From Chiloscyllium plagiosum (Eukaryota), in assembly GCF_004010195.1 (NCBI RefSeq), contig NC_057718.1, positions 53,627,615 through 53,691,614 on the forward strand: a DNA stretch of 64,000 bases, read 5' to 3'. Below are positions 1-60,373 of the stretch, piece after piece (the stretch's first letter is position 1; the number at the start of each line of letters is the position of its first letter). The notes below the pieces were generated by a model, which was given only the letters and a program-made list of their open reading frames with translations, ran no database searches and was not told where the DNA came from. The position numbers and the translations under genes were made by a program.

Positions 1-294
1 CTTGACCTACCTGCCTATCTTCTTTTCCACCTATCCACTCCACCCTCCTCTCTGACCTATCACCTTCATCCCCTCCCCTACTCACCTATTGTACTCTATG
101 CTACTTTCTCCCCACCCCCACCCTCCTCTCATTTATCTCTCCACCCTTCAGACTCTTTGCCTGTATTCCTGATGAAGGGCTTTTGCCCGAAACGTCAATT
201 TTACTGCTTCTCGGATGCTGCCTGAACTGCTGTGATTTTCCCGCACCACTGATCCAGAATCTGATTTCCAGCATCTGCAGTCATTGTTTTTACC
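1..294 (+). mobile_element. Penelope-like element 3' UTR/terminus (family A), cut by window start
   Basis: Pyrimidine-rich UTR, hammerhead motif, then GGATGCTGCCTGA...CCAGCATCTGCAGTC tail; the same tail follows the GIY-YIG remnant at 16192-17052. Confidence 0.8.
165..200 (+). ncRNA. Minimal hammerhead ribozyme motif (family A)
   Basis: CTGATGA (169-175), A, GGGC-TTTT-GCCC stem II (177-188), GAAA (189-192), CGTC (193-196); stem I ATTC/AATT imperfect. Confidence 0.8.
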
Positions 295-357
295 TATCTT
301 TCATCCAGCCAATATTCCAAATATCTATCATTTACAAATTGTGCATTTTATTCTACT

Positions 358-510
358 ATGGGTATATGAGTAGGAAGGGTTTAGAGGGATATGGGCCAAG
401 TACTGGCAAACAGAACTAGATTGGGTTAGGATATCTGGTCAGCATGGACGATTTGGACCAAAGGGTCTGTTTCCATGCTGTACATCTTTATGACTCCATG
501 TCTCTATGAC
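358..510 (+). mobile_element. CR1/HER1-like LINE 3' tail
   Basis: RKGLEGYGP coding end, GGACCAAAGGGTCTGTTTCCATGCTGT motif and (CTATGACT)-like terminal repeats shared with other CR1 copies here. Confidence 0.85.
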
Positions 511-1539
511 AAATACCATACCATTGTTTGTGAAGGGATGGAGGAAAATATCAAACAATTACAAAGATATCACTATATTGTCAGTAATGGAGCAGCTACT
601 GGAATCTGCTATCAGAATTAGAGACTGAGAACTTGGGGTTCTGGACTAAGGTCTACTTTTCTCTAACCATCAGTTTTTATTGTACTAGGTCTTTGGGTTA
701 TACTTTAATAAAAAAAAGAGCAATTCTGTGGAGATTTTCATAGCAAAATACTTTTTTAAAAATGTAGTTTTTTTAAATCCTACTCATTTCCACATAAACA
801 CTGTCTGCATAATTTTGTATGATTTTATCCAGAATTAGCTACAATTCCATTGCTGTTTAATGAAGATTTATTCAATTATTTCAGTCTTATGGAGTCAATT
901 TATAAACACACTGTATATTTACAACAATTGAATGAGCAGAAAGCAGTAAATCTTGATCCAATGCATAATAGATTAAATTAAGTGAAGGCTGGCAGAGGTT
1001 TGTTCTGGTCCCTCTAAGTATCCATTATAAATAAATACGGCTGTCTATAGTAACCAAATTATTCCATCCAGAATGATTAATGTCTCTGAGGTACACTAGG
1101 AATGTAAACACAGTATTTTTCATAAGCTCTGTCAGTTTTAATAAGTTGTTTGGCTTTTACTTTCTCACTTAATGACCGTGGTTTTCTAAACAGAAACATT
1201 TCAGAAACTGCATTTTAGGGGAAACCTTCTTCGGCCATTTTTTTAAAGAAGATGATATTAAGGACATCAAGTAGCATTTATATGGTGCTTTTAATTTACT
1301 AAAGCATTCCAATATGATTCATCAAGTTCACCTGATAATATTCGGACTGAGAGCAAAAATATTCATCAAAGGGTAAGGTTATCTTTCCATCTTGAGAGTT
1401 GAGCTGTGTCAGTATTAACATCCATTCCCAAATTAATTTGAGAAACTGGTGGCATATTGCGGTCTTGAACCACAATGTTCTATGGCAGAAAAGTACACCG
1501 ACAGAGCTGTTCGGAAGAGAAAACTAGGATTTTTAAGAA

Positions 1540-3400
1540 GCATCTTAAAAGGAGCCAAAGGTGCAGAGGATGTTGTGGAGGTTTTGAGATGAAATTCCAA
1601 AGCATCAGGCATCAGCAGCTGAAGGCATGGCCAACAATGGTAAAGCTATAAAAATCGGTATTGCTGAAGAGACTGGATGTAAATTCTACATATATCTCAG
1701 AGGGTTGTGCAGGCAGACGAGATTACAGAGAGAGATACAGAGGCCACAACAACACTAAAAACAATGATGAGTAAGGAAACTGAGACACTGTGTGTCTGAG
1801 GCCACATGTTGCTCAGTAAGCTGTGAGATGGGCAAATAAGACTGCTACAAGTGAGGACGCAGCAGCAAACCTTGGGTAGCCTCAGTTTTATGGAGGATAA
1901 AATGTGGGAGGGAGAATGACCAAGAGTACATTGGAAGAGTGAAGCCTATAGTTACCATTAGCCGACAAGCAGATGGAGTCAGGCAATGTCCGAGGTAGAA
2001 ATGAGCATCCTTAGCGATGGTGCAGAAATTAGAGTACAATACAGTGTGGAAACAGGCTCTTCAGCCCAACAAGTCCACAGCGACCCGCCGAAGCGCAACC
2101 CACCCATACCCCTACATTTACCCCTTACCTAACACTACGGGCAATTTAGCATGGCCAATTCACCTAACCTGCACATCTTTGGACTATGGGAGGAAACCAG
2201 AGCATCCGGAGGAAACCCACGCAGACACGGAGAGAACGTGCAAACTCCACACAGTCAGTCACCTGAGGCGGGAATTGAACCCGGGTCTCTGCTGCTGTGA
2301 GGCAGCAGTGCTAACCACTGTGCCACCGTGCCGCCCACCAAATGTGATCACAAGTTTGCCTTAGGGTCAATTTTGACATCATGTTTGCAAAACATCTAGT
2401 TCAGCCTTAGTCCATGTCCCATGAGAACAAGGAAATGAATAGCGATGAAATAGAATTGTAGCATGGACTGATGAGTTCCATTTTCTCAATGATTAAACTG
2501 AACAAAATTTCTGCTTATCCTATGATGGATCTAAAAAAAAGCTACATATTTAATGAAAAGGAAGGAGAATCAAGCAGCTGTCCTATGCTAAAGATAGGTG
2601 TCAGATTAAATGCAAAATTAACATTATGTTTTCTGACGACATTGTCAAAAGTTAGCACAAGGATGAGAACAAAGAATAGTTCTTTGTGCAATGATGCTGG
2701 GGTGGAAAGAGAAGCCATTGCACATGATTCACTGGCTGTGATTAAAGAACTAAAAGTGGAACCTGATTTGAGCAGTTCCATCCAGTTGAATGATAGTCAA
2801 GAGCCATTGAAGATCATGGTGTACTTAAATTTGTCAAAGGCTACACACAGGTCAAGAAGGTTAGGGAGATATACACCTTTCCCAAAGTCACATTGACTTT
2901 GACCTGAACTGTTTTGGTACTGTGGCAAGGGTGGGAATATGATTGGAGATATGCAAATAAGGAGTTTTGGGGAAGACATTAAAAAGCAAAAGGTGGCTGA
3001 AGATGAGGGTGGGTGTTTGCAAATATGGGAGGATCAAAGGTTACTTTTTCAGGAGAGGGGTGTTCATGACCACGGGTCAATATGTGAAGAGAAAGAGCCA
3101 TTAGCAAAGCCAGATAGCTTCAGGACCATTTAAAGAGAGGTGGACAGTCAGAGATTTAGTGAGAATAGGGTTAGGATTAGTTCAGAGAGTGTGGAAGGAG
3201 AGATAGAAGAGAAACCTGAAAAAAGATGCAAACACAGGGCTATGGCAGTGTGAAAGAAAGTTTGGCCAAGTGTAATAGGAGGATGCAGCAGAGGCAGCCA
3301 ATCAACTAGTCTCAATTTTATTGTCAAAAAAGTCATGCGCTCCTCAAAAGCATTGCTGGAGATATCAGTGGAGAGGCAGGCAAGAGGTGTTTACAAGATT
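1540..3400 (-). mobile_element. Old degraded L2-like LINE remnant, interrupted by a SINE
   Basis: Purine-rich + strand with remnant L2-like phrases; resembles the reverse of the L2 3' region; boundaries vague. Confidence 0.4.
2029..2336 (-). mobile_element. HE1-like tRNA-derived SINE (young subfamily)
   Basis: Minus strand begins GGGCGGCACGGTGGCACAGTGGTTAGC (A box), GGTTCAATTCC (B box); near-identical to 15296-15580 and 23672-23994. Confidence 0.9.
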
Positions 3401-4940: not shown

Positions 4941-5768
4941 TATTTTATTTGGACCTATTTCCAACTGAGATGTCCAAGGATGGATAATCGAATTAATCCT
5001 TAGGCCTCATCGATGTATTCACATGAACTGGTGGTAATGGTTGTCCTCCAGAGTCAGCTTGGGCTAGTGAATGTGTCAATATGCATGTTTCCTTTGGATA
5101 TTGCCTGGTTCAGGCCTACAACTAACATATACAATAAACAGCAGAATCATTGCAGGCACTGAAACACTTGGGCATTAGCTAGAAAATTGGGACAATCACA
5201 TGATTAGAAGCATGGAGATTCTAAACATTCTCATTTTATAGCGCAACAAGATGAGATTCTTGCCAGTGAGAAGGGAGAGATCTATTTTTATACATTAACG
5301 TCTCATTATTAGTTAAATCCATTTCATTTACATACCATTTCCCATTCTCCCTGTTACCAGGATAGAAAGTAGATAATTCCCGACATGGAAGTCAGAGCGG
5401 TTTCCTGGCAACTCTGGCTCTTCCAGACTTCCATCTTGGAGACCAGTCACCAACTTCTCACGGACCCATCCATAGAAGTGACATTGGCATGTACCAGCCT
5501 CATTGCACCCTCATGGCACATCTCCAATCCACTTACAAGATGGAGCTGCATTTTCCATGCTGCACTTGGACTGCAGTTCCACCTTTTATTAGAACACTGC
5601 TGCAAGGAGACTTTGCACATAGGGGTCAGGTGCCCATCTTATGGATTCAACCAGGCTGTATCTCAGGAATCCTCACTTCCTCTTAATGTTCACTCACATT
5701 GCACTTGCTTGGAAACTTACAGCATTCCTGCCTTGACCTATCTTCCCTTTTTGAAATTTGTTCCCTCA

Positions 5769-6128
5769 GGGAAAGGGTGGCTCAGGGGTTAGCACTGCTG
5801 CCTCACAATGCCGAGGACTTGGATTTGATTCCTCCTTCAGGCGACTATCTGTCTGGAGTTTAATATTCTCCCCATGGCTGTGTGGGTTTCTTTCTGGGTG
5901 CTCTGGTTTCCTCCCGCAGTTCAAACATGTGCAGGTTAGCTGGATTGGTCATGCTAAATTGTCCTGCAATGTCCAGGGGTGTGTAAGCTAGGTAAATTAG
6001 CCATGGCAAATAACAGGCTACAGGGCTAGGGTAGAGGAGTGGGTCTGGTTGGGATGCTGTTCAGAGAGTCAGTGTGGACACAATGGGCCAAATGGCCTGG
6101 TTCCCCGCTTTAGGGATTCGATGATTCA
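5769..6128 (+). mobile_element. HE1-like SINE (older copy) in duplication unit 1
   Basis: GGTGGCTCAGGGGTTAGCACTGCTGCCTCAC head, decayed B box, CR1-like tail. Confidence 0.85.
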
Positions 6129-6906: not shown

Positions 6907-7410
6907 TTTGTTGGGATTGGAACAGAGGGAGTGGAGGGCTGCACATTATGAGGGCGAGAGGTTGGAGTGGGGGAGGGGTGTAGACAGGTTGAGGCAGACA
7001 GGTTGAGGCAGTTAATGTCTCGGTGGCAGTTGGAAATGAAGAGATCGAGGGCCGGTAATAGGCCAGCACAGGGTGTCCAGGTGGATGGAATTTGTTGGAG
7101 GCCGGCGAAGGGATCCTCGGAGGGTGGGTGGGAGTCAGCTCGGAGGCGGAGGCCCAGAAGAAGTGTTCAACGTCACAACGCATATTGAATTCATTGATGC
7201 ATGGATGGAGGGGGATGAAGGTAAGGCCTTTGCTGAGGACTGATCATTTGTCCTCAAGTGAGGGGTGGTCTGGGGGGGATTCCTGATGAAGGGCTTTAGG
7301 CCAAAATGTTGATTTTCCTGCTCCTCGGATGCTGCCTGACCTGCTGTGCTTTTCCAGTACCATTCTAATTTTTACTCTGATCCCCAGCATCTGCAATCCT
7401 CACTTTCACC
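6907..7410. mobile_element. PLE insertion with inversion: minus-strand ORF fragment joined to plus-strand 3' terminus
   Basis: Minus 6907-7278 encodes SVLSKGLTFIP...EHFF (PLE pre-RT motif); plus 7279-7410 is a family A tail starting ATTCCTGATGA; flanks AGCACTACACTTT (6894-6906) / AGCACTGTACTTT (7412-7424). Confidence 0.75.
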
Positions 7411-12788: not shown

Positions 12789-12823
12789 ATTCTGAAGAAG
12801 GGCCTGTGCCCGAAACGTCGAAT
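12789..12823 (+). ncRNA. Minimal hammerhead ribozyme motif (family A), intact core
   Basis: CTGAAGA (12792-12798), A, GGGC-CTGT-GCCC, GAAA (12812-12815), CGTC, GAAT. Confidence 0.8.
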
Positions 12824-12880
12824 CTCCTGTTCCCTGGATGCTGCCTGACCTGCTGTGCTGTTCCAGCAATAAAGTTTCAA
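12794..12880 (+). mobile_element. 87-bp solo PLE terminus with perfect 15-bp TSD
   Basis: ATTTAAAATTATTCT at 12779-12793 and 12881-12895 flanks hammerhead plus family A tail ending AATAAAGTTTCAA. Confidence 0.9.
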
Positions 12881-14624
12881 ATTTAAAATTATTCTATAGG
12901 CCTGTAAAAGTAGCTTTAATAATTAATAGGATTACCTTATATTTAACTATATTTATTGTTCTTGTGACAAGTGGCTGAAAGGAAAAGCCAGTTCTGTAAA
13001 CATTGATAAGAAAGCTTTCCATGACAAGTGAATTGAAATTGGTTTTGTGTTAACACAACAAAGGTGATAGCAAAGCCATAGCCTGGTTTATAGTCCATCC
13101 AATTTTCAGATTGTATAATGGGCCACTGATTTACTTTGGGTCATTTTACATTGCTACTAAAGACCAATTTTAACAGACAAATATTTAACTTTTCCTTTAT
13201 CTACTCCCAAAGGTATTAAAGACTCCTGTTAGGAGCACTGAGTAGAGAGTTTCCTTGTCTGCCTAAAAGCATATAAATTGATGATACCTTCCATCATGTT
13301 GCTGATGGTCAAGAGTTCACTGCTGCGGTGCTAATTGCTGAGATTGGATTTGTCCTGTCTTTTGTGTACAGCAGATGCGTCAGCAGATAAATGCCAACGC
13401 AGTAGCTGTGGTATAATTTGTGGATAGCACATACATCAGACATTTTCCAGATTGCCAGGTAAATGTCAATGTTGTGGCTGTAGTATCACAGCTCGCTACG
13501 TTTAAGCTATAGACTGTCCCAATAACTTGGGAAAAATTAAAGATTTGTTAAGAATTGAAAATCCACTCACATATCTTCCTGGTTTCCTTGATTAAAGACA
13601 CTGGCAGCCTTGGGAGTAACCGATGAATGAAGAAACTAATAATGTTTTCTTTTGTATGGTGAGTACTGTATTTCCTCTTATATAGTATTTCATTATAAAA
13701 CGTGATGTAAAAATCTTCCAAGGGTTCAGCAGTAAAATCTAACCTCCAAATATACAATTCAATCTCACTATCTCTCATTGGATAAAATTTTAAACTATAA
13801 AGGTGACACTTGCCGGAGTCCAGCTTCAGATAGAGATTGAGGAACAGTTATGCTATCAAAGCTGGGCTTTGCATAAAATATCAGATTTTCATAGGGAAGC
13901 TCCACAAGCAAAGGACACACAACTCTAAAGAATCTACAGAAGGGGCTCTATTCTTAGAAAATGAGTAGGTTTATTGCACTATAGCAATAAGTACCAACTA
14001 CATTTAGTGAAGCATAATTACTAAGACCTCAAAGAGTTGGTGCAGATACATCTGTTCCCTCCTAAATCTAAACCAGAACTCCTTGTCTCCACCCACAGAC
14101 TGTGTTTCGATAAGACATTAAGGTATCATGAGCAAACCAGTGACGCACTGTACTTTTAAGATTATAGATCATATTAAGACACACAATGTTCCAGGATGAA
14201 CATTTCCATACACCTCAATAGCCTGTTTCAGCCTGAGTTGGCCAGTGATAGAAGTAGCAGTTCCTGTAACTTTGCTGTGTATAAATAAGCACAGTACCCA
14301 GACGATATATAAGTCTGAGGTCTTCTCACAGAGTAAATAGTTAGTGTTGTTAATGAACTTCAAGACATCTGTCTCATCAATAATCCAGTCTTTGTGCCAT
14401 ATGTTACATGGGATAGCATAGAAACACAATTCAAACTATATCATGCTGGCAGTGGCATTTTACCAAGAAACCATGTCAATTAGTCCCCTTGCATCTGAGC
14501 TGGAAGCTTGAGTTCAAGTCCCAATGAATAACTGAACATAGAAGGAACCTTTGTGATGCAAGTTCAACAGATATGTAGTCAGCCTGCCAATCCTTCCAAA
14601 TATTCATCACTGAAGAGAATGTCC

Positions 14625-14790: not shown

Positions 14791-14794
14791 TAAG

Positions 14795-16191: not shown

Positions 16192-17052
16192 GGTGAAAGT
16201 GAGAATTACAGATGCTGGAGATTAGAGTTGAGAGTGTGATGCTGGAAAAGCACAGCAGGTCAGGCAACATCCGATGAGCAAGAGAATTGACGGTGGGAAG
16301 GATATGGACAGGTAGAACGGGTCATGAGGGTGGTGCCGAGTTGGAAGGTTAGAACTGGGATAAGGAGGGGGGAAGGGAAGTAAGGAAACTGGTGAAATCC
16401 ACATTGATGCAGTGGGGTTGGAGGGTCCTGAGGCGGAAGATGAGGCATTCTTCTTCCAGGTGTCAGGTAGTTAGGGAGTGATGTTGGAGGATGCCCAGGA
16501 CTTGCATGTCCTTGGTGGAGTGGGAGGGGGAGTTGAAATGTTCAACCATGGGGTGGAGTGGGGGGCTGGTTGGTGCAGGTGTCCCAGAAATGTTCTCTGA
16601 AGCGCTCTGCAAGTAGGCGTCCTGTCTCCCCAGTGTAGAGGAGACCGCATCAAGAGCAATGGATACAGTAAATGACGTGTGTGGAAGTGTGGGTAAAACG
16701 CTGATGGATGCGGAAGGCAAGCCTTGGACAGAGGTGAGGGGGCAGGAGCGGACGCAAGTTTGCAATTCCTGTGGTGGCAGAGGAAGGTGCCGGAAGGGGA
16801 GGGTGGGTTGGTGGGGGGTGTGGACCTGACAAGGGAGTCACAGAGGGAATGGTCTTTGCGGAAAGCAAATTGGGGAAGAGAGGGAAATATACCTCTGGTG
16901 GTGGGATCTGTTTGTAGGTGGTGGAAATGGCAGAGGATGATGCAAAGTATACAGAGATTGGCTGGGTGGAAGGTGAAGGCTAGAGGAGTTCTGTCCTTGT
17001 TGCAGTTGGAGGGGTGGGGTTCAAGGACAGAGGTGCGGGAAGTGGATACAGG
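16192..17052 (-). mobile_element. PLE fragment with GIY-YIG endonuclease remnant and 3' terminus
   Basis: Minus frames give FTHTSTHVIYCIHCS, ETG...AERFREH and HFNSPSHSTKDMQVLGI, followed by family A tail. Confidence 0.85.
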
Positions 17053-17963
17053 ATAGTAAATACTCATTTAGTATCTCCCCCATTTTCTGCGGCTCCACAC
17101 AAAGGCCAACTTGCTGATATTTGAGGGGCCCTATTCTCTCCCTAGTTACCCTTTTGCTCTTAATGTATTTGTAAAAACCCTTTGGATTCTCCTTAACCCT
17201 AGTTGCCAAAGCTATCTCATGTCCCCTTTTTGCCCTCCTGATTTTCCTCTTAAGTATACTCCTACTGCCTTTATACTCTTCTAAGGATTCACTCGATCTA
17301 TCCTGTCTATACCTGACATATGCTTCCTTCTTTCTCCTGAACAAAATCTCAATTTCTTTAGTCATCCAGCATTCCCTATACCTACCAGCCTTTCCTTTCG
17401 CCCTAATGGGAATAAGCTTTCTCTGGATTCACTTTATCTCATTTCTGAAGGCTTCCCATTTTCCAGCCGTCCCTTTACCTGCAAGCATCTGCCCCCTGAA
17501 AGATCTTGCCGAATGCCGTCAAAATCGGCCTTACTCCAATTTAGAACTTCAACTTTTAGATCCTGTCTATTCTTTTCCATTAAGACAAATAGAATGATGG
17601 TCACTGGCCCCAAGGTGCTCCCCCACTGACACCTCAGTCACTTACATTTATTTTCCAAGAGTATTTCAAGTTTTGCACCTTCTCTCGAAAGTACATCCAC
17701 ATACTGAATCAAAAAAAATTTTCTTGTACACACTTAACAAATTCATCTCCATCTAAACCCTTCACATAATGGCAGTCCCAGTCTTTGTTTGGAAAGTTGA
17801 AATCCCCTACCATAACCACCTTATTATTTTTACGGATAACTGAGAACTCCCTACAAATTTGTTTCCCATTTTCGCGCTGACCATTTGAGGGGAGTCTGTA
17901 CTGCAATTTCAATAAGGTAATCATCCCTTTCTTATTTCTCAGTTCCATCCAAATAACTTCCCT
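17053..17963 (-). mobile_element. CR1 ORF2 endonuclease/linker fragment
   Basis: ORFs with VMVGDFNFP and KENPKGFYKYIKSKR...LNEY. Confidence 0.9.
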
Positions 17964-19372: not shown

Positions 19373-19382
19373 TCTATTACAG

Positions 19383-22300: not shown

Positions 22301-23560
22301 TTTGAGCTTTTGCACATTGAAGAAATGTATGGTTGTTGTAAGCTATTTAATTGTTCTTTAAAGACTAACCATTGCCTGCATACAGTCTGCCTTTAATATA
22401 TAGTTTGAATCCACCTCAACCAATTTGTGAGTCACACTTTCAAATTTTCCCTTATTCAAATGCAATACCCTTTCTTCAGATTGAACCAGCTCACTTTCTA
22501 GCACAAGGCAAAATTTGATAACATTGCTGTCCCTCATCACTAAAGGTTTGTTTCACAAAAAGATTATTAATTATGCACGAAAACAGAAAATCCTACAGAA
22601 ACTCAGCATCTGCTGAAAGAGAAAAAGCTGTGTTACTGTTTTGAGCCTGGTATGACTTTTTCAGAACTGAATGAGGATTATTAATTAGTCTTTATTATTC
22701 GGTATATAATACGGAAGTTAAAATAGCCTAACCTGTAGTCAGCTCCTCAATATACTGCTCTAGAAAACCATCCCTAACATTGTTTAGAAACTTATCCTCC
22801 ACAACTTTAGTGCTCAATTGATTTACCCAGTCTATATGCAGATTGAAGTCGCCTATGCTAACTCTGTTGTCCATGCAAACTAATTTCCTGATTGATACCA
22901 TATCCATGCTACCACTACTAATTGGTGGCCTACAAATAACTCTGACCAATATCTGCTCCCCATTACTGTTTCTGCACTGCATTCAATAGATGCTATATAT
23001 CATTCTTGCAATCTGAGATCATTCTGTACAAATATGCTGATCCTCAATATTATTATCAGCATAATTCCACTTCCAATTCCAAAGTAGAGTGTTTGGACTT
23101 GAAATGTTAACTCTGTATCTCTCTTCATAGATGCTGTCAGATCTGCTTAGTTTCTCCAGCATTTTCTGTTTTTATTTCAGATTTCCAAACCACGGTATAT
23201 TACCTTTATTTGCATCATTTTCCTTTGTGTCTACCCTTCCTATTTTGCAAACATTCTTGAATATTCAGTATCCAGTCCTGGTCCACATGCAACCATGTCT
23301 CTCTGATTGCAACTTAATCATATCCATTTACTTCTACATATGCCTAGAGATCATTGACCTTGTTGCAAATACTGCATGTAATGAAGTAAAGAACCCTTTA
23401 CTTTGTCTTTTTGACATCATTCAGCATTGGAAGCAGACTCAAATCTTTATATCTCTTGTCTTCTATGTTTGCTTGCAGCTTTTTTCCTTCCTGTTATCAG
23501 CTTATCTCTCTTCCAATTTGGGTTATCCTCACCCATGAAAATCTAGGTTAGATCCACCCC
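19383..23560 (-). mobile_element. Old CR1 with most of ORF2 (decayed), interrupted by Rex1/Babar and small PLE tails
   Basis: 3' end at 19383 resumes at ~20497; minus ORFs YRSVSFIPVVGKIIESVIKD and IGDFNLHIDW. Confidence 0.75.
19450..20476 (+). mobile_element. Rex1/Babar LINE 3' fragment
   Basis: [33 protein letters not shown]; homologous to 41220-42271. Confidence 0.85.
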
Positions 23561-24054: not shown

Positions 24055-24254
24055 GTGAAAGTGAGTACTGCAGATGCTGGAGATTAGAGTTAAGAGTGTG
24101 GTGCTGGAATAGCACAGCAGGTCAGGCAGCATCCAAGGAGCAGGAAAATCAATGTTTCAGGCAAAAGCCCTTTATCAGGCTTTTGCCCAAAATGTCAATT
24201 CTCCTGCTCCTCCGATGCTGTCTGACCAGCTGTGCTTTTCCAGCACCACACTCT
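24055..24254. mobile_element. Fold-back pair of PLE family A termini
   Basis: Minus tail 24055-24179 joined to plus tail 24178-24254; flanks TGCTGCAACCCACATG (24039-24054) / TGCTGTAATCCACATG (24256-24271), 14/16. Confidence 0.85.
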
Positions 24255-33545: not shown

Positions 33546-35523
33546 GAAGGTAAATCTTTTCCTTTCTCAATGTACAAAAACAAATCCAATGATTGGTGAG
33601 TATTGGCAAGGATATTGCCAGACTGGAAAATTTTGGTAATGTTGGGATTTTGCAGGGGTGGCCCAACTCCCGACGAAGCTGTCAGTGGGGAGGCGGTCCA
33701 TAGGGAGAATGGTGGCCCTGCTTCCACGTAAAAGCTAGTTGATAGGATGAAGCAAGATTCACTGTGGCAGAATGCCAAGATAGAGGAGGGGCGGGGAGGG
33801 GTATGAGTAGTAGACTTAGTCAAATTCAGGCTGGCTGGCCCTCCCGGTGTATGAGGGACCTTGGGGCTGCGTTTGAGAAGGGGGAAGGGTTGAAGGGGCT
33901 ACTGTGATCTTGGAGTTGGAGAGGCTGCCTCCTCAGGACAGAGAGAACCACAAAAGAGGACTCTCTCTGCCCTTTTGCCCAATGCCAGCCTGTATAATTA
34001 AAGCTGCTCAGCTTCCATCATGGCGCGGCAGTTCCAAAGAAGAATCACACTGCATTCGAAATGTTAACTCTGTTTCTCTCTCCACAGATGCTGCCACACC
34101 TGCTGAGTTTTGCCTGTATCCTCTGCGATGGTGTTGTCATCTCCCTACAGAGTGTAAAATCATGACAGGTTGAACATGGGGCCTTTGAAAGGCCAGTAGA
34201 TGAGTCCTTCAGGGCCTCAATAGTCCCGAGTGGACAGACCGCCTTTCCCTGTTAAATCTCATTAAGTTCATGGCTGGGGAGGGGGACAGTGGGAAGACCT
34301 CATGTTTGCATCGACAAGGCCCCTATCCTGGTTTAAAACTTGCCAGTGAGTGAACAAAAAATCCAGCCCAACAAAAACTGGATAAGCTAAAGTTATTTTC
34401 TTCAAAACTTTGTGGTGTATTTAATTATGAGGGCTTAGCTATGTTGAATTAGAAAATCGTGTTCCCTGTGGTTGAAAAATTCATCACTGGAATGCACAGA
34501 TTTAGAGTAAGTGGTAGGAAAGCTAAAGGGGATTAAAGGGGAAGTACCTTCACCCAGAGGGTGATGTGGATCTGGAACTCATTAGCTGAAAGGTTGTGTG
34601 TGTAACATCACCAGGATTTGGTTATGCCCTCAAGCTGCTGTGACCTGCATGGCTGCAGACCAAGAGAGGACAACATAAGGAGGTTGGATAGCTCTTTGTC
34701 AGTTAGTGTCAATACGATGGGCCATAGTTTTGGTAAAATTCTCTGTTGACAATTGACCATACTTTGTTGATTACAGTAGATCTCATCTGAACAATTGAGT
34801 TCATTGTCAAATATCACATAGTCGTCTACCAACTGTCAACTATTTTACAATGATCAGATGACCACAAAACATTTGCAAATGGATGACACCATGCTTCTTT
34901 AAATCCACATGCCATCTCAAACTTCTTATTCCTTATCATTACCTTCATCCCTCTTATATTATTCCCATTGCCATCCCCATTCTCACCATCTCTCCCTCTC
35001 TACTAACCTTTCTCTCTAACGTAATCCAATTCTCATCCTCGGGTCCTCCCCTCCCACGCATTCCCTACAGGAAATCACATCTGTAGACCTCTCAGGAATT
35101 CTTTTCAATTCCTTAATGAGCAGACAACCATCATTGTTAATTTGGCTACCATGTACAAATAGACTATGTAAATATTTGCTGTAAAAGAGGAAGTCCAGGA
35201 AATAGGGAATGGTATTCAAAGAACCCGTACAAGAATTGACCTAAAATGGAGCAGTAAAATCACCATAGTCCTGCAGGACAATAGGGCTGCTCATTAAAGA
35301 GAGACAACTCATGGTTTAACCTGTGAGTCACCACTCCTCAGGTGGGGAGAGTGATTAGATTAGATTACTTACAATGTGGAAACAATGTGGTTGAGAAGGA
35401 GAATCTTTCATGGTGACCTCAGCTGGGGTGGGAATTGAACCCACATTGATGGAATCATGCTGCATGGTGAATTAGTGTACTGGAATGCACACTAACAAGA
35501 TACATTACAAACTAAAGATCCAA

Positions 35524-36060: not shown

Positions 36061-36346
36061 AAGAGTTTACTGCTGACATGATGCAGAAGTGATCACTGGT
36101 ACTAAGAAGTCACTACAGGCATGGATAAGTGATCTTGCATTCAATATGCCATTTCAAATGCAGAAGCATCTTTGCATTTCAGTTTATTGCCTGTCTGAAT
36201 TGGTATTCATAACATTAAAATCTATGAACATATTAATTAAACATGAACAGATGTTGATCCACAGCAACACAAGGACAGATTAGGACATGCTGATGACACA
36301 TCCACACATGGGAGAATTACCTGGCCATACTGAATTTGAATCGTAC

Positions 36347-36492
36347 TGAAAAGAGAGATATGTTGCTGAAGGTTCTTATTTTCCATTTACCAGGACAAAT
36401 GCAAGAATATCAATCACAGCAGTTTATTGTATTCTTGCTTGTGTCCTGATGAGTGGAAGATGGAAAGCTTCAGGAACATGTCTCCCTTTTCA
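36347..36492. repeat. 63-bp inverted repeat of old PLE termini with decayed hammerheads (family D)
   Basis: Arms 36347-36409 and 36430-36492, 50/63 identical; right arm TGTC-CTGATGA-GTGGAAGATG-GAAAGCTTC. Confidence 0.75.
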
Positions 36493-36667
36493 AAAAGATT
36501 TAACACATGAGAATGATACCACCTCAGAGTTCATCTGCCAGCTAGCAAGAATACATCCAACTACATGGGCTTGCCTAGGCTTTGAACTATTCCAAGAATG
36601 ATCTCCTCTAGGAATGTTGTTGACGGTGAGGTTCTTAGGAATAGTATAATCTGTGGAATCAGAATTT

Positions 36668-43139: not shown

Positions 43140-43425
43140 TGAAATGTTAACAGTTACAGTTAACCTGAGAATGTAACTTTTAAAAAAAGTTTTGTGATTT
43201 ACATATGAAAGAAGTGAAACTATCATGGTCATTCTAACAGATGAGAGACTTAACAAACAATCAATGTATAATTTCAGTTACATCACACTGTAAACTTTTA
43301 TTATAAATTCTGTGTCTTACAATTCTGTACTCCACAACCATCTGATGAAGGATCAGCGCTCCGAAAGCTAGTGCTTCCGATTAAACCTGTTGGACTATAA
43401 CCTGGTATTGTGTGATTTTCAACTT
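43140..43425 (+). mobile_element. PLE-type 3' terminus (family B)
   Basis: Hammerhead then TAAACCTGTTGGACTATAACCTGG...TGTGATTTT tail, shared with 53110-53237. Confidence 0.65.
43339..43373 (+). ncRNA. Minimal hammerhead motif (family B)
   Basis: CAT-CTGATGA-A-GGATC-AGC-GCTCC-GAAA-GCTA-GTG; one stem II mismatch. Confidence 0.7.
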
Positions 43426-43879
43426 CAAACAAATTTGTGAGACACGATTTTCCTCGCACAAAAATTGACTATCCCGAATCAATTTTAGATTGTGAAGGAG
43501 CAAAAATGGCCTTTAATAGAGTGATATATACTTCTCATCAGATGTGGGAGTTGAAAGAGAGTTTAAGGGTTACTGCGGATAAAATCTGCCGTAAATGCTG
43601 TTGGCTGCGAATCTTATCAGATCGAATGGATCGGTTGGAGAGTCAGTTAGAAGCAATGAGGAATTTGCAACAGTAACAGTATGTGATGGATGGCAGTTAT
43701 AGGAAGGGGGGAAAGTCTCAAATACAGTCACACAGATGGGTTAACTCCAGGAAAGGTAAGAGAGGTAGGCAGCTCGTGCAGGAGTCTTTTGTGGATATAC
43801 CGATTTCAAGGTTTGTGTGAAAATTTGTAGTCGGGTGCTCGTTGTTGTGGTTCTGTTTGCCAAGCTGGGGATTTGTGTT

Positions 43880-43919
43880 GCAGACGTTTCTTCCCCTGTC
43901 TAGGTGACATCCTCAGTGC
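43880..43919 (-). ncRNA. Hammerhead motif (family C), minus copy
   Basis: GCA-CTGAGGA-T-GTCACCT-AGAC-AGGGGAA-GAAA-CGTC-TGC; stem II closing pair broken. Confidence 0.65.
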
Positions 43920-43967
43920 TTGGGAGCCTCCTGTGAAGCGCTTCTGTGACCTTTCCTCCACCATTTG

Positions 43968-44526
43968 NNNNNNNNNNNNNNNNNNNNNNNNNNNNNNNNN
44001 NNNNNNNNNNNNNNNNNNNNNNNNNNNNNNNNNNNNNNNNNNNNNNNNNNNNNNNNNNNNNNNNNNNNNNNNNNNNNNNNNNNNNNNNNNNNNNNNNNNN
44101 NNNNNNNNNNNNNNNNNNNNNNNNNNNNNNNNNNNNNNNNNNNNNNNNNNNNNNNNNNNNNNNNNNNNNNNNNNNNNNNNNNNNNNNNNNNNNNNNNNNN
44201 NNNNNNNNNNNNNNNNNNNNNNNNNNNNNNNNNNNNNNNNNNNNNNNNNNNNNNNNNNNNNNNNNNNNNNNNNNNNNNNNNNNNNNNNNNNNNNNNNNNN
44301 NNNNNNNNNNNNNNNNNNNNNNNNNNNNNNNNNNNNNNNNNNNNNNNNNNNNNNNNNNNNNNNNNNNNNNNNNNNNNNNNNNNNNNNNNNNNNNNNNNNN
44401 NNNNNNNNNNNNNNNNNNNNNNNNNNNNNNNNNNNNNNNNNNNNNNNNNNNNNNNNNNNNNNNNNNNNNNNNNNNNNNNNNNNNNNNNNNNNNNNNNNNN
44501 NNNNNNNNNNNNNNNNNNNNNNNNNN
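43968..44526. other. Assembly gap (559 N)
   Basis: Run of N. Confidence 1.
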
Positions 44527-44605
44527 GACAACCAGAAGCGGCAGATTCAAACCACTACAAAGGCCGGAGGAAAGATCACAGAAGCGCTTCACAGGAGGCT
44601 CCCAA

Positions 44606-44645
44606 GCACTGAGGATGTCACCTAGACAGGGGACGAAACATCTGC
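44606..44645 (+). ncRNA. Hammerhead motif (family C), plus copy
   Basis: GCA-CTGAGGA-T-GTCACCT-AGAC-AGGGGAC-GAAA-CATC-TGC; stems I and II pair, ACGT changed to ACAT. Confidence 0.7.
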
Positions 44646-44911
44646 AACACAAATTCCCAGCTCAGCAAACAGAACCACAACAATGTACCCATTTCAAACA
44701 GGTATGCTGTTTTGGAAAATGTAGGGAGTGATGGATTCTCAGGGGTTTGTAGCACAAACAGCCAAGTTTCTGGTATTGAGACTGGCTCTAATGCAACGAG
44801 GGCTACATTGGGTTCCAAGAGATCAATTGTGTTACGGGACTCTCTAGTGCAAAGTATAGACAGACGTTTCTGTGGCCAGTATCGAAAAAGCTTCCCGCGT
44901 GCCAGGAGGTA

Positions 44912-47656: not shown

Positions 47657-48920
47657 AAAGTTGCTAATGATCTTTGCAAGGAAGGTAAATAGTTACTTTA
47701 TAAACTGGGAGGTTGTGCCTGAAATGCAGAAAAATAATTAATGCCAGATAGAAAATTGGATTTTGTCCCTCTGTGTAAGGTGTCTGAGGTTTTATTTGAA
47801 ATTAGATGCTACAAATGGTCTTATGAAATGCTAGCTATGAAATTCAATGTCCAATGAAAATGGAATTTAAATGTAATATATTAGGGAAAGTGTATAACAT
47901 ACCATCAATATATCAATTATTTGTTTATATATTGATTCACATAAAAATTAAGAACTCCACAATGATTTGCAAAGACAGCCTCAAGATTTTGCTCAATAGG
48001 TTTTCTGCACAGAGGTGCCTCATTTTAAATATCTGGATAAACAAACGTTATCCTCAGGAAAAAAGAAGTCCATTCTTATAAAAATAAAACAATAAATTCG
48101 GCAGAATCAGCAGCACTCCAGTTTAGGCGATGATGTATGCATGTGAGTCGTGAGCAGAGCATCGCCAGAATCTCTAGCAGCTCCAAAATTATCTGCAATC
48201 TGAATCATAGATGTATCCTGACCCTGCCGTTGTTGGCCATGTCACATGGACTCAGGATATTACTTGGGTCAGGTCAGTGTTGAAACCATGTTTCCCTTTG
48301 TGGGAGAATCTAGAACTAGGTATCATAGTTTAAAAGTAAGGGATGGCTCATTTAAGACAGAGACAGGGGACAAAAGATTCTCTCAGAAGTTGAGAGGTTT
48401 TGAATTCCCTTCCCCAAAGAGCAATGTAGAATGTTAAATATTTGTGACGCCGAGGTAGATAAATTCTGGTTTAGCCAGGGAATGAGAAATTATTGGAGGT
48501 ACACAGAAATGATTGAGGGTAAAATCTGATCAGCTATAATCTGAATGATGGAACAAGCTTGAAGGGTTGAGAAGTCTACTTTTATTTCTCATTTGTATGT
48601 CTGCCCATGTAGAAGGCTGCTGATTAAGAGGCAGCTTCTACATTCAGCAACCAATTAAAGATGCTGGGTAGGTTCCCGAGGTATGATGAACAAAGCTCTG
48701 GACGGTTAGCAGCCCCCCAACACCCCACCCCCACCCTCCGCTAAGGCTAAATGTCACAGAGTCAGCCAGGGAACCTAAAATTTAGGAGGCTTCTAGACCA
48801 TTGCTCATGGCTGAGATCTTCTTATCCCAGAGACTCCCATCATGAAGAGATTGAGAGAAGGCATCAACAACTATAATAAGACCTGCCTCCAGTTACTGCT
48901 GTGCTCTGACCGCAGTAGAG

Positions 48921-48996
48921 TCAAGAGTGTGGCGCTAGAAAAGCACAGCAGGTCAGGCAGCATCCGAGGACCTGGAGAATCAACGTTTCATGCAAA
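48921..48996 (-). mobile_element. 76-bp PLE family A tail truncated inside hammerhead stem II
   Basis: GAAAAGCACAGCAGGTCAGGCAGCATCC...ACGTTTCATGCAAA; AGTAGAG on both flanks (48914-48920, 48997-49003). Confidence 0.75.
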
Positions 48997-49294
48997 AGTA
49001 GAGGTTATTCCAATGAATGAAGTGGCCTAGTGGCATCAACAAATGAGCTTCAGTTAGTTCCTTAACTGGCAAGTGTCTACCCACCATTATTGGACAAATA
49101 GTCACTGCCACATTGATCCTGCTTCCAGCATTGTGCTCAGAGATAGGAACACGCTACAGACACTATATTCACATTTTTCTCCTGGTCTCACCCCTAATGG
49201 CACCTCTGTGGGTTGATAAAATTCCACAACATCCAGTGCTACACCGAATGTAACTCTAGTGATACTGTACTTCACACATCATCAAATTTTAATC

Positions 49295-49680: not shown

Positions 49681-51439
49681 AGCTGGGCTGGAATCATACC
49701 TTGTCTTCTCTGAAATCTTTACCACTCCTTTAATCTTGTTTCAGCTTTGATCAGTTATTTCCCTTAACTTCAACCAAGATCTGCCTCTCTGTTCATGCCC
49801 CCTTCCCTCCTTTTCAACAGCTTCAAATCCATGACTGTGAAAATCTATGGAGTCGATGATGATGATCTTTCAATTAATGGTACTGTGCAGACAGCTGCTG
49901 CTCTGCAAGTTGATAGTAGGCCATATATTCTGTAGCTCCTCATGTGCTTCTCAGACCAGCGTGAACAGGGCCTGATCGAGGCTTTTGCCCGCCACTCCTC
50001 TTCGAGTTGTTGAACTCTCCTGTGTCTATTCTCTTGTGCAACTGTCTTTGGATGTTGTACTTCCTCAGACTGTGTTTCAATAATAATTAAACTGGGGATA
50101 AGAATAAAAGCTAAAGAATCACATTTCTACCTCTCTTTAGATCTGAAAAAGAGTCATGGCGCGCGAACATTAATTCCAATTCTCTCTCTGCACATGCTGC
50201 CAGACTTTGTGAGTTTTTCCTAGCACTGTTTTTTTACTTCTGCTCTCAAACATCTGCAGTTCGTTAATTTTAATCAAACAGAAATTGACTTAAGATCAGC
50301 TTCACGGTGATCCGTGGCCAACTGGAATAGATGGAAATCAGAGACTCTTATCTGAATTTCAGACGTGTTCTCCCTGTGAGCACTGTTCCATGCTGGGAAT
50401 GCCGGATTGTAGGTTTACTCAGAATGAATTATTCAAGATATGCAAAACCTATTGTTCAAAAGGGCAACAGTGTGTCGTGAAGCTGCTCTTTGGAAACTGG
50501 CTGGTACCGATCTGAAATTTCCAGCACTGTTTATATGGGCACTCAGAGCCATTAATCAAGGTACCAATTTAGAGATTGAAAGGAACATTTCTATCACTAT
50601 ATTCCTCCTCCTTTACTGTGTTTTCTTTTTGTATTTTTGACTATTTCCAGCCTTGAATATTTGAAATGGTAAGTGTGAAATGGGAGTGACCACAGAGAAC
50701 ATAAAAACAGAAAGTAATGGAGAAACTCAGCCGGTCCGGCAGCATCTGTGGACAGGCCCGTTTTGAAGTTGACCAACAGGAGGGGTACCATCTGCAGATC
50801 TTGCCAATGACACCAATGAGAAACATTTGCAGAGGCCAGATCTGACATTAATTGTGGCTTGACCAGATCGTTCTTAAAATCGTCCATAGGGAAGTTGAAA
50901 CAACAGGGCTAAAAGTGGATAAGACCCAAAACCTGGTGCAATGATCACAATGTGCAATTGACACACTGCTGATGGACACCCCCAAACCCCCCCCAAACCC
51001 CCTACACACACCCCTCCCCAAACCCCACCCCTGACTGAGAATTGCAGGAGAGGTTTGTGGAAGATTAAGCTAACATACAATAATTAAAGCAAACTTTCAT
51101 CTTTTAAAGGAGAATTGTATCCTGGCTACAATAGATGCACATAAAAAAATACAGCTGAGGAGCAGCAGTAGAAGGTTCAGCCCCTTGAGCCTGTTCTGCT
51201 GTTCAATAATATCCTGAATGTTTCCATTCCCAATTCCACATTCCTGCCTAGCCCAATAATCCTTCACCTGTGTACTCAGCAAGAAACTATTTACCTGCAT
51301 CTTCAAAATATTCACTCTGATTCCATACCTTTTCAAGAAGAGAGCTTAAAAGATAATACATTTCACTTCACTGCTATTTTAAATGGCTGATCTCTGATTT
51401 TTAAAGTGATCCCTAGTTGTTAATTCCCCAAAAGACAAA

Positions 51440-52665
51440 TCATTTTGGTTTTATGGCAATATTGCGTTAATAGCAAACTTTACACGTTCTGCGATTGCAG
51501 TAGCAGCATGAAACAGCTAGCTTCACCTGTTGCTCAAATGTTTGTGATAGCTTACCCTTTCAGCATGATCCGAGGTAGGCAGGGCACTTTTCAGGACAAT
51601 GAGTGACTTCCTAAGGGCCTTCCATGAGTTAGGATGACATGCAGAGAGAAATGATCTGATCAGGGCAGCCAATATCCTGCAGGATACTCCCAATTTCACT
51701 AACAGCTCTGCATGGTGAACAAACGGTTCAGGCCCTATTTATGGCCAATCTTATAACCCGTGGAACTGTAGGAAACTCAATGTGTACACTGACTAGAGAA
51801 TTTAGGTTTTCATTAGCTATCTTCCTGGGCTGATTTTTCAACTAGAACACCAAGGAAAGGAAGCTCATTTCTGTGTACCATTTCAAAAGCGAAATGAGCA
51901 GGATGGTGTCCAGTCAAATTCACTATATCCTTCCAGGACATTTATCTCAGACGTTTCAACAATAGATGCTGATAGCTGTTTCACGCTGATAAAATGCACT
52001 GGCAACTCAGTTCAAACCAGAAATGACATTCTGCCTGTCACACAAATTGGTAATATGCTGTATGAACTTCAATGATCTCAAGTATGTCAGCCATTCATCC
52101 CAAAGACTGGAGGATCATATCAAACAGCATATCCATTTAGCTGTTTGCAACAAGCAGAGAACTAACCAGATCCAAACCAGCTGCACTTGCAAAAGTTACA
52201 ATTCAATATCCAACATTAGATGGAATTCTGCAAATCAACAGAATGTGCAAGGTATATTCTGACAATCAATTTGGGGTTATATGTCTTGCTCACATTATGG
52301 TGCACTTGTACCTACTGAAAATGACATATTAATATGCATGGCCTTGTTATTTGTAGATGGAAAGAGCATGTACCTGTTTCAAAATAGGTGACAACTATTT
52401 GTGGGTTCATTTTCCAGGGCAAAGTCCTGACTGGAATAATCTGCTTGGTGGGAAACTTAAGCAAAGCCTGGCTACTTAATATGAATCAGAATTAATGGAT
52501 GTGTAATTGATGATACGCCTCTACCAAACACAGTCTATTTGCCATCGAATTAGCATTTTCCTTTCATGCAGTATAAATGTTGGGTTTCTCCTTAAATTTA
52601 CATTCTTGCAACATATCCTGAAGAGTTCAAGATGGAAACCTTTGACAAAATGTTTTTTCAGCAAT
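51440..52665. mobile_element. Ancient PLE fossil with inverted halves (family D)
   Basis: Minus ~51440-51770: PEKCPAYL...SQTFEQQVKLAVS; plus ~51940-52665: DILPVTQIGNMLYELQ, KYVSHSSQRLEDHIKQH (GIY-YIG-like), ending in decayed hammerhead CTGAAGA at 52618. Confidence 0.65.
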
Positions 52666-53150
52666 GCTGAAGTTCTATACGACCATATGAAGATTTTTTT
52701 AAAAACCTTTGGTTCTTTAGCCAATTTCTTTAAATTTATATCCTCCAATTATAGATTATTTTGCCATTGGAAGAAATTTCTCCTTCTTTGCTTTGTCACA
52801 GTCCTTTTGCCTTTCAACATATCTATTGAGTTTTCTTGTGATCTTCTTACTCAAAGGACAATAATTCCAGTCTCTTTAGTTTCTCAATGTGTCTAAAATC
52901 TGACATCCCTAGTATCATTTTAGTCAATCTGATCCCCCCCCGCTCTCCCCAGTGGTTAACAAGGGGCAAGCAAATTGACCTTATAAAAAAAGTAGCAATC
53001 AATCCAGCAATTAAGATAAGATATGCAAATCAACAACTCTGAAATTTTGTCAGGAACAAGATCTTAGATAACATTATCGACAGTTAGGGAGGTACGAATG
53101 GTTTGTGTTTGTTTGATTGTTTATTGTGTCTTATAACCATGCTCCAGATC

Positions 53151-53185
53151 TACCTGATGAAGGATCAGCAATCCGAAAGCTAGAG
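53151..53185 (+). ncRNA. Minimal hammerhead motif (family B) in PLE-type tail 53110-53237
   Basis: CTGATGA (53154-53160), A, GGAT-CAGCA-ATCC, GAAA, GCTA; stem I imperfect. Confidence 0.7.
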
Positions 53186-53337
53186 CTTCCAAATAAATCA
53201 GTTGGACCATAATTTGGTGTTGTGTGATTTTAAACTTATTTCAAAATAGACATCATGAATTCTGCCTTTTACAAAATTTGCTTTCTAGACCCACAAACGT
53301 GGTTTCTAAAAATATCTTTCAAACTTAAGCTTTGCAA

Positions 53338-58898: not shown

Positions 58899-59063
58899 TG
58901 AGGAAGTGAGGACTGCAGATGCTGAAGACCAGAGTCGAGTGTTTGGTGCTGGAAAAGCACAGTAGGTCAGGCAGCATCAGAGGAAGAGTTTATACCCGAA
59001 ACTTCGACTCTCCTGCTCCTTGGATGCTGCCTGACTAGTTGTGCTTTTTCAGCACCACACTCC
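58899..59063. mobile_element. Fold-back pair of PLE family A termini
   Basis: Minus arm to ~58984, plus arm from ~58989 (TATACCCGAAAC); flanks TTCTGATAATTA / TTCCGATAATTA. Confidence 0.8.
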
Positions 59064-59334
59064 AGTTTCCGATAATTAGAATATGTGTGAGTGAGTTTTG
59101 ATCAAGGCTGAACGTCAGTATCTCTGTAGGCCCCATACTGTCTGCACTGAGTATTGCCAGGTATAAAAGCTGCCTCGGGCTACAGTCAGTTAGTTTTGGT
59201 CAATTGTTCTTTTAGAAAGGAGGTATAAATTGGGATTCCAGGCTAAACAGTAGTCCCAGGCAGCAATCTCCATTCTGCTGATTGTGTTGCATATTTCCCA
59301 TAGAATCTGTATTGAACCTGGATTGAAAACAAAA

Positions 59335-60228
59335 AATGCTGGCGATTATACACTTAATGATAAGGTCGTGGGCAGTGTTGCTGAACAAAGAGACCTTGGA
59401 GCGCAGGTTCATAATTCCTTGAAAGTGGAGTAGATAGTGGTAGGTAAGCAGGAAGCAGGTAGATTGGATAGTGAAAAAAGCATTGTTGACAGTAACAGGT
59501 AAATTGTTATGCAGTTAACCAGGAAATCAACTACTAACTCTGGTACAGGCTGGAAAGCAGATAGCTAGGATAGTGAAGAAGGCGTTTGGTATGCTTTCCT
59601 TTATTGGTCAGAACATTGAGTATAGGAATTGGGAAGTCATGTTGTAGCTGTACAGAACATTTGTTAGGCCACTTTTGGAATATTGTGTGCAATTCTGGTC
59701 TCCCTCCTATTGGAAGGATATTGTGAAACTTGAAAGGGTTCAGAAAAGATTTTCAAGGGTGTTGCCAGGGTTGCAGGATTTGAACTGTAGGGCGAGGCTG
59801 AATAGGCTGGGACTGTTTTCCCTGAAATGTTGGAGGCTGAGGCTGACCTTATACAGGTTTCTAAAATCATGAGGAATATGGATAGGATAAATAAACAAAG
59901 TCTTTTCCCTGGGATGGGGGAGTCCAGAACTAGAGGGCATAGGTTTAGGATGAGAGGGTAATGATTTAAAAGGGGTCTAAGGGGCAACTTTTCCACGCAG
60001 AAGGTGATGCATGTATGAAATGAGCTGCCAGAGGAAGTGGTGGAGGCTGGTACAATTACAGTATTTAAAAGGATCGGGATGGGTATATGATTAGGAAGGG
60101 TTTAGAGGGATATGGGTTAAGTGCTGGCAAGTGGCATTAAATTAATTTAGAACACCTGGTTGGCATGGACAAGTTGGATGAGTTGAAACAGAATGATCTG
60201 TTTCCGTGCTTTACGTTTCTATGATTCT
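59335..60228 (+). mobile_element. CR1/HER1 3' part with a foreign 70-bp insert
   Basis: Homologous to 45090-45837; insert at 59483-59552. Confidence 0.9.
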
Positions 60229-60232
60229 ATTA

Positions 60233-60373
60233 TAGCAGGTCAGGCAGCATCCATGGAGATAAAGCAAGTTAACGTTTGAGTCGAGATGACTCTTCATCAA
60301 AGCTCCATCAGGCTCTTCATCTAGATTCAAAATATTGGTTTGCTTTCTATCCGTGGATGCTGCCTGACCTGCT
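60233..60373. mobile_element. Fold-back pair of PLE-type termini (family E), decayed hammerhead
   Basis: AGCAGGTCAGGCAGCATCC...GGATGCTGCCTGACCTGCT inverted arms; minus TTGATGA-A-GAGTC-ATCTC-GACTC-AAACGTT. Confidence 0.7.

Follow-up and report, generated by a model that had tools for sequence, protein, structure and literature searches.

Hammerhead ribozymes of Penelope-like elements in the shark Chiloscyllium plagiosum, and short copies likely to derive from capped, uncleaved RNA

Minimal hammerhead ribozymes are known from metazoan Penelope-like elements (PLEs), where they occur mostly as solo copies left by truncated elements and have a CUGANGA and GAAA core, an extra base after A9, a G10.1-C11.1 pair, a palindrome at 15.2-16.2 and a short helix I (PMC4209133). 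Endonuclease-bearing PLEs are further characterised by 5' truncation, partial tandems, inverted neighbours, a tail of 30-40 bp at one end only and target duplications, with a start site in the pseudo-long terminal repeat (pseudo-LTR) and, in rotifer elements, a putative TATA box and initiator (PMC8557442, PMC3846280). In the available text of three studies, the replication of PLEs, the strand used as template, the origin of head-to-head, one-tailed insertions and the role of the hammerhead are open questions (PMC3846280, PMC8557442, PMC11167929). Here we analyse 64,000 nucleotides of the bamboo shark Chiloscyllium plagiosum (NC_057718.1, positions 53,627,615 to 53,691,614 of the forward strand; this whole stretch is called the window), which carries hammerheads of five families, A to E.

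Judged from their sequence, the motifs are minimal PLE hammerheads of several lineages and ages. The ribozymes and their elements belong to an already known kind, to which this survey would contribute no more than a very high number of copies and the families of this shark. The departures from the described minimal hammerheads (PMC4209133) are the number of motifs, about 1-2 x 10^5 (with another descriptor, and extrapolated) against 4,000 in the coelacanth and 9,000 in Xenopus, and family D, which has no extra base after A9; sharks, start sites and the extra G discussed below are not treated in the accessible part of that paper. Our principal interpretation, which we consider probable, is that the motifs are minimal type I hammerheads in PLE pseudo-LTRs and that the many short copies which start just ahead of the motif and are preceded by a G likely arose when capped, uncleaved sense RNA was reverse-transcribed as far as its cap. 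A wider picture, whose chances we judge evenly balanced, would make the short insertions a fossil form of 5' rapid amplification of cDNA ends, with a capped mRNA that begins with the hammerhead in Neptune-type elements and a dimeric reverse transcriptase (RT)-endonuclease that uses both nicked strands as primers, at two fixed internal sites of uncut sense RNA, and joins the cap ends head to head.

The interpretation depends on where the copies begin. In a genome sample of 140 evenly spaced 10-kb pieces (1,342,616 non-N bases; the assembly measures 3.56 Gb and the window lies on a contig of 106 Mb), 272 A/E-type copies were anchored on the tail, independently of the ribozyme, and 207 were scored, 11 having been dropped for N or an edge and 54 for low identity. 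Counting from C3 of the core, 131 of the 207 5' ends fall between -12 and +12 and have a sharp outer edge (52 at -5 to -2); some of those near +5 may owe their position to the way the variable N7 was aligned. The remainder comprise 13 ends between -63 and -14, 36 beyond -66 and 27 between +15 and +36, four of which are at the predicted cleavage site, +28. A, B, E and D each have a TATA-like box some 31 nt upstream of the edge (at -40 in B, -35 in E and -46 in D), and all ten A references have a T-rich box about 31 nt before -4 despite differing sequence between the two.

The base at the junction is also unusual. Across the genome, the exact 30-nt family A word that starts at -4 follows the C of the family in 15,396 cases, a G in 3,444 and an A or T in 2,280, so that G makes up 60% of the non-C cases (3,444 of 5,724) compared with 26% expected from base composition. 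In the sample the excess of G is found only at -4, with 9 of 17 copies at -4, 1 of 16 at -3, 2 of 12 at -5 and 25 of 97 downstream, and six of the eight solo A copies at -4 have it. For family B, the TATA spacing, together with an initiator-like site and a few copies in the sample, pointed to position -8, which was fixed before the genome-wide search; 1,302 copies begin at this position, and G precedes 83 of the first 100 among the matches listed. The window holds examples of the extra G at 7279 and 60304. A subfamily with a templated G was ruled out, as the family's upstream sequence is missing from all 40 G-preceded copies fetched (20/20 in A and 20/20 in B), and these have no common upstream sequence. 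A non-templated G at the 5' junction of full-length insertions made by L1 has been read as the copied mRNA cap (PMC11702581), and the junctions described here resemble these, with the differences that the enzyme class is another one and that the capped end is reached after only 90-130 nt, priming being internal and near the 5' end.

An edge of this kind might also form if the RT, copying a longer RNA, stalled where the hammerhead is folded or where a protein sits on it, with the G contributed by terminal-transferase activity or microhomology. This would fit the finding that, in one subfamily of A, the 40 nt that begin at -4 fold as hammerhead stems I and II, the edge thus coinciding with the outer pair of stem I, as well as the many ends inside the ribozyme (0 to +12) and the fact that some Gs can be read from the inverted arm. 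We nevertheless regard stalling as unlikely: the B edge is at -8, five bases outside a 3-bp stem I, with the same TATA-like spacing and the same G, the excess of G is restricted to a single position, and the 36 copies beyond -66 read straight through the presumed obstacle.

Templates that had been cut by the ribozyme appear to be rare. No fossil cleavage peak at +28 was found in the A-type sample or in the genome pattern counts. The pattern for copies starting at +28 gave 575 matches and the +27 control 336, a ratio that we do not interpret because the control is polluted by one-base deletions; by our own reading, 20 fetched +28 matches comprise 13 inverted-arm junctions, two mutations or deletions and five clean starts. 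Even if all 575 are counted, the share of cleavage-site starts among the tails, estimated at 114,000, does not exceed about 1.4%. Since so few copies begin at the cut, integrated templates are seldom cut; this rarity does not show that the ribozyme is inactive, as cut, uncapped RNA may be destroyed.

These counts bear on a route tentatively suggested for minimal hammerheads (PMC4209133), in which ribozyme cleavage and circularisation are followed by rolling-circle reverse transcription. Long copies do cross the hammerhead, tandem two-hammerhead units exist (loci L225, 334 nt, and L215, 226 nt), and in family C, which shows no 5' pile-up, the unit is all coding, such that ligation into a circle would restore the open reading frame (ORF) split by cleavage. 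As the main route it is nonetheless very unlikely, since a circle without a 5' end cannot produce the sharp edge and extra G of A and B, few copies begin at the cut, and insertion by an anole PLE is unaffected in vitro by ribozyme mutants. For family C, the missing pile-up and the restored ORF mean that a circular route may still apply.

Head-to-head pairs provide a second line of evidence. A one-sided tail and an inverted partner are known PLE features (PMC8557442, PMC3846280), and one of these studies favours self-priming on an antisense template for the head-to-head junctions, while its Discussion leaves the sense of the template open (PMC3846280). Antisense self-priming would account for the inverted partner that we found in 88 of 207 A-type copies and for the palindromic microhomology used at many pair junctions. 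Among 41 scored pairs, two of which share an arm, 38 have one long 3' end (+112 to +144) and one short (+62 to +96), as expected of two primers at two sites; both 5' ends lie within -8 to +12 in 24 pairs, so that the arms usually stop near the same edge; and it is on the 5' side of the sense strand that the extra G is found. Thirty of the 41 pairs have a target duplication with 8 or more matches (shuffled mean 1.5, maximum 5). Unlike the proposal of Arkhipova et al. (PMC3846280), the G footprint points to capped sense RNA, and we consider self-priming on an antisense template highly improbable as the source of these pairs.

The closest experimental parallel is PAc, a Poseidon element of Anolis carolinensis, whose enzyme is predicted to be a dimer, extends both strands and starts reverse transcription at two internal sites on unprocessed RNA, which gives the optional tail; ribozyme cleavage is not needed, and mutating the ribozyme leaves insertion in vitro unaffected (PMC11167929). 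The analysis of the 5' junction and cap and the assignment of start sites to arms are new here relative to the available text on PAc. Reverse transcription of capped sense RNA could proceed as follows in the shark. A polymerase II promoter in the pseudo-LTR, with a TATA-like box about 31 nt upstream and an initiator-like start, would begin the RNA at or just before stem I (putatively at -4 in A and E, at -8 in B and, as a prediction, at -15 in D), which would make the hammerhead the first element of the mRNA. By analogy with PAc, the RT-endonuclease would nick both strands, and each nick would prime at one of two internal sites, at about +90 and about +126 in A. Both cDNAs would reach the cap and copy it as an extra base, the two ends would be joined head to head, and priming within a read-through 3' pseudo-LTR would yield the longer copies. 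The ribozyme probably cannot form a closed stem III on its own, and its cutting would require a dimer or the help of a protein. The loss through cutting would be the cap and about 32 nt in A and the cap in B, and in C the AUG would be parted from the ORF at codon 10; the ribozyme is for this reason more likely a processing step or off-switch than a step in making the template, and we infer a processing or damping role.

Several observations weigh against this interpretation and should be set beside it. The promoter of Drosophila Penelope is internal and TATA-less (PMC2377424), so that the promoter reading need not be general. For up to 5 of the 20 A copies fetched and up to 8 of the 20 B copies, the G may by our reading stem from the inverted arm, and without these copies the shares fall to about 53% and about 75%; an uncapped end could likewise yield a G, through a C added by terminal transferase or through a preference at the junction. 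Starts at +28 are commoner than at +27, and a small cleaved fraction may thus exist. In family C, 76 long and 22 short copies, taken from loci that are partly biased, show no pile-up at the hammerhead, and for D, most of whose loci were selected for length, the start site is only predicted. In a raw single-cell RNA run (X21), the one of two from the same sample that yielded reads, those from A are dominated by passively transcribed stubs, 94% continuing into unlike sequence, and no pile-up of RNA starts was found on C; the run shows neither starts nor cuts. C-like reads in it cover the whole element (L152), are mostly 90-95% alike to it and have a strand bias of about 4-5 to 1, the library direction being unrecorded. 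A literature search, mostly without subscription papers and supplements, found no report of an extra G or cap in PLEs or of long/short arm pairing among the matches listed; one on shark hammerhead ribozymes, likewise mostly without subscription papers, gave none among the matches listed.

The ribozyme itself is of standard minimal design. The core of CUGANGA, GAAA and UH at the cleavage site is intact in typical copies of A, B, C and E and in one D copy, and the G10.1-C11.1 pair that closes helix II occurs in all five families, although it is mostly lost by CpG decay in D. An extra unpaired base between A9 and 10.1 is found in all 76 matches of the genome sample and also in E loci (families A, B, C and E), whereas in D A9 runs directly into a 2-bp stem II. 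Helix III is replaced by a palindrome at 15.1-16.1, ACGU in A, C and E, AGCU in B and AAGCUU in D, with a calculated self-duplex energy of -1.7 to -4.3 kcal/mol. As stem III is only a palindrome of 4-6 nt, the monomer should, on folding grounds, be inactive. When dimers are folded, the minimum-energy homodimers of most families pair mostly through stem II or extended stems and not in the active form. Lunse et al. reportedly dealt with PLE hammerhead dimers in 2017. For the Schistosoma motif the monomer was inactive and dimers cleaved weakly (PMC4209133), and one of nine Xenopus dimers cleaved (bioRxiv 10.64898/2026.07.22.740005).

Coding links tie the hammerheads to PLEs. In A and B the hammerhead is preceded by the terminal part of a GIY-YIG endonuclease that carries a CX4CX2C linker (L013, L014, L051), and these endonuclease ends are 29% identical between the two families. 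A CX2-5CxxC linker before the endonuclease is a mark of Neptune and Nematis (PMC8557442), and A and B are probably of this type by their linker, which without a tree does not tell Neptune from Nematis. In L051 and L052, an A tail is joined straight to a B 3' untranslated region (UTR) at about the same position, forming a chimeric or nested unit. Family C is present as whole units of RT and endonuclease bounded by two hammerheads (L149, L152 and L164; 2,487, 2,442 and 2,236 nt), has no CX2-5CxxC linker and has an ORF that begins in the hammerhead, features by which, without a tree, it would belong to the Penelope/Poseidon clade. Direct Pfam matches of C are weak and below the cut-off, its relatives carry PF00078 and PF26215, and the closest named relatives of its protein are bamboo shark records at 88-93% identity. 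The N-terminus of C (L149) aligns from residue 1 with a PLE protein of a liver fluke, P0014 (46% over 185 amino acids, E 5e-46), and horizontal transfer is possible. Endonuclease stretches of C also occur inside predicted bamboo shark host proteins, MAP3K7, NT5DC1 and EYA3-like isoforms (P0002, P0007, P0020), by exonisation or mis-annotation.

The ORF of family C starts with an ATG formed by A9 and the next two bases, and its stop codon follows 8 nt further on, in loop II, so that start, stop and ribozyme overlap; predicted cleavage would fall in codon 10. As in PAc, the ORF starts at the beginning of stem II and the cut falls inside it; unlike PAc, for which the available text makes no such statement, the stop codon is in the ribozyme as well (PMC11167929). 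The accessible part of PMC13725137 contains nothing on PLE start codons. Unit length modulo 3 was considered as a clue and proved uninformative, since the three whole copies have indels. A bamboo shark record (P0001) ends at the in-ribozyme stop of C, and a zebra shark record (P0004) reads through it in frame. For D and E, tblastn (E<=0.01, 50 loci) found no ORF remnant joined to the hammerhead; an ORF remnant of E was seen by eye only, and the anatomy of D, with promoter-like boxes, palindromic stem III and an inverted pair, is like that of the other families. The hallmarks of PLEs are present (pseudo-LTR repeats, an optional tail of 30-40 bp, an inverted 5'-truncated partner and target duplication), and A, B and C each have a long and a short 3' end.

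The window had been surveyed before, from its letters alone, and the following features are now recognised in it, the coordinates at 22.6, 50.1 and 52.6 kb and the target duplications being estimates by eye.

1..296, plus strand: family A copy with 3' UTR, hammerhead (C3 at 169, C17 at 196) and long tail; core intact, first stem I pair lost.
7279..7405, plus strand: family A stub that starts at -4, the putative transcription start, after a G run foreign to the family; core decayed at CpGs.
12790..12881, plus strand: stub of a second A subfamily with intact core (12792-12819) and short 3' end; 14-bp flanking direct repeat by eye.
16197..17079, minus strand: old family A copy with a remnant of the GIY-YIG-side ORF (42% identity, E 8e-34).
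22580..22680 (approximate), minus strand: decayed E-related terminus, by eye.
23094..23187, plus strand: E-related terminus, truncated within stem II.
24059..24252, both strands: family A head-to-head pair, 24059-24179 minus with long tail and 24178-24252 plus with short end; target duplication of about 15 bp by eye.
34058..34111, plus strand: E-related terminus, truncated at the GAAA box.
36331..36503, both strands: family D head-to-head pair, 36331-36413 minus and 36431-36503 plus (core at 36446, A13 changed; plus arm starting at about -15 to -17).
43153..43425, plus strand: family B copy with 3' UTR, TATA-like box at -40, short 3' end and, at 43342, a hammerhead whose core is intact and whose stem II is degraded.
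43807..44683, both strands: inverted pair of family C (Poseidon-type) on the two sides of an assembly gap (N, 43968-44526), with hammerheads at 43916 (minus) and 44609 (plus), one defect each.
48917..48998, minus strand: family A stub, truncated within stem II.
50140..50262, plus strand: decayed E-related terminus.
52570..52670 (approximate), plus strand: D-like terminus with TATA-like box at -46, core at 52618-52638 and decayed stems; no BLAST match to two D references.
53142..53237, plus strand: family B copy, core intact at 53154.
58903..59059, both strands: family A head-to-head pair with long minus arm and short plus arm; target duplication of about 12 bp by eye.
60234..60376, both strands: family E head-to-head pair; minus arm 60234-60304 starts at -4 with a G before it; core without C3 and G12.

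The preliminary description had listed motifs with their stems at 169, 12792, 36446, 43342, 44609, 52618 and 53154 on the plus strand and at 43916 on the minus strand, all of which are present, and the decayed copies it placed at 7283, 24.17 and 60.28 kb and its traces at 22.65, 23.10, 34.04 and 50.14 kb were likewise recovered; the copies at 16197-17079 and 48917-48998 (both minus) and the pair at 58903-59059 are additions. Its five families are all dispersed repeats; A and E are not unrelated, because the tail of E is the downstream tail of A. Typical B has a 5-bp stem II, and both window copies are degraded. A self-complementary stem III, claimed for the best copy of each family, does occur in all five, but at 44609 the palindrome is gone. 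C11.1 is lost at 43916, A13 is replaced by G at 36446, and C3 and G12 are lost at 60.28 kb; among the window copies of C, D and E, none keeps a complete core. Both C hammerheads contain the stop codon of one ORF and the ATG of the next.

The idea that the window forms a special cluster has to be abandoned. A strict descriptor (core, G10.1-C11.1, palindromic stem III and U16.1-H17) is satisfied four times in the window (169, 12792, 43342 and 53154), whereas 100 shuffles give 0.03 on average and never more than 1; this amounts to 4 in 63 kb, or 63 per Mb, the same density as the 57 per Mb (76 cores) of the genome sample. That several PLE lineages of different ages are present is borne out by the endonuclease or RT links of A, B and C and by copy identities of 70-99% by family: the best other copies match the window copy at 96-98% in C, 93-97% in A, 89-99% in B, 88-94% in E and 70-91% in D. 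To say that these lineages kept the ribozyme here was an overstatement, as the core and CpG positions of genomic copies decay just as they do in dead insertions. The check proposed at the time, conservation of the core above its flanks across copies, does not show it either: the commonest letter of the core columns is found in 97-116 of 118 copies, and CpG columns decay. Because selection acts on source elements and genomic copies decay in this way, comparing core and flank among copies is the wrong test.

Of the 76 sample cores, 70 have at least two stem I pairs and 27 at least three. Extrapolation gives about 190,000 core-intact motifs, for which we take 1-2 x 10^5 as a fair range, since the same sample over-predicted the exact A word (33,000 against 21,120 counted). 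A first look at the genome gave 3,065 candidates for A, 3,399 for B, 1,072 for C, 190 for D and 867 for E, which are not copy numbers, and hammerhead variants recur in which the core is retained and the stems are changed. Chance matches or assembly artefacts could be suspected, because an Rfam search of the window (E<=5) matched no hammerhead model and because assembly gaps lie inside inverted pairs. There is practically no chance that this explains the motifs: it is refuted by the 76 sample matches against 0 in each of 5 shuffles, by the 21,120 exact copies of the 30-nt word against 0 for its reversed control, and by the ORF links.

Further lineages and arrangements were noted. Several more E-related hammerheads (L207, L231, L244, L246, L277, L298) have the same core and other stem I and II pairs, and they are the best matches of the traces that the window holds at 23.10, 34.04 and 50.14 kb. 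Non-LTR retrozymes, reported from one cartilaginous fish, also carry type I hammerheads from PLE pseudo-LTRs; they are defined as tandem repeats, whereas the window has solo or inverted copies only (bioRxiv 10.64898/2026.07.22.740005). Retrozyme-type tandem repeats with a hammerhead per unit were not found in the window, and isolated dimers occur elsewhere in the genome: the retrozyme-like two-hammerhead units in L225 (minus strand, 7408/7742), L215 (minus strand, 7551/7777) and L123 arose by internal deletion. The B copy at 43342 has a duplicate on another contig (L031/L032), 99% identical over the 226-nt query in an alignment of about 1.1 kb that includes flanks. The N gap at 43968-44526, the only one in the window, lies between the inverted C arms and probably hides the middle of a single fold-back insertion.

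Other repeats also occupy the window. A tandem duplicate (5625-6162 and 6267-6805; 99-100% identity, spacing 642-643 nt) is either recent or an assembly artefact. Many fragments belong to one abundant family (358-505; 14.8-15.8, 17.9-18.1, 37.0-37.4, 45.1-45.8, 53.3-53.9, 58.4-58.6 and 59.5-60.2 kb), which look like ends of CR1-type long interspersed elements. A second, young family (2.0-2.3, 6.4-6.5, 15.3-15.6 and 23.7-24.0 kb; 84-100% identity) is presumably similar to short interspersed elements.

If the wider picture of a fossil 5' record holds, the question of a sense or antisense template would be settled and the one-sided tail and inverted partner would be explained, while the ribozyme would be recast as an off-switch that removes the cap, or in Poseidon beheads the ORF, and not as a maker of templates. 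The value of the finding is mechanistic: thousands of natural junctions would name the base at which the RNA starts in two unrelated families, A and B, and show that integrated templates are seldom cut. The cap-like G in two families and the pairing of long with short arms, both read from genomic sequence, were not found in the literature searched, and they would make the questions of PLE replication testable.

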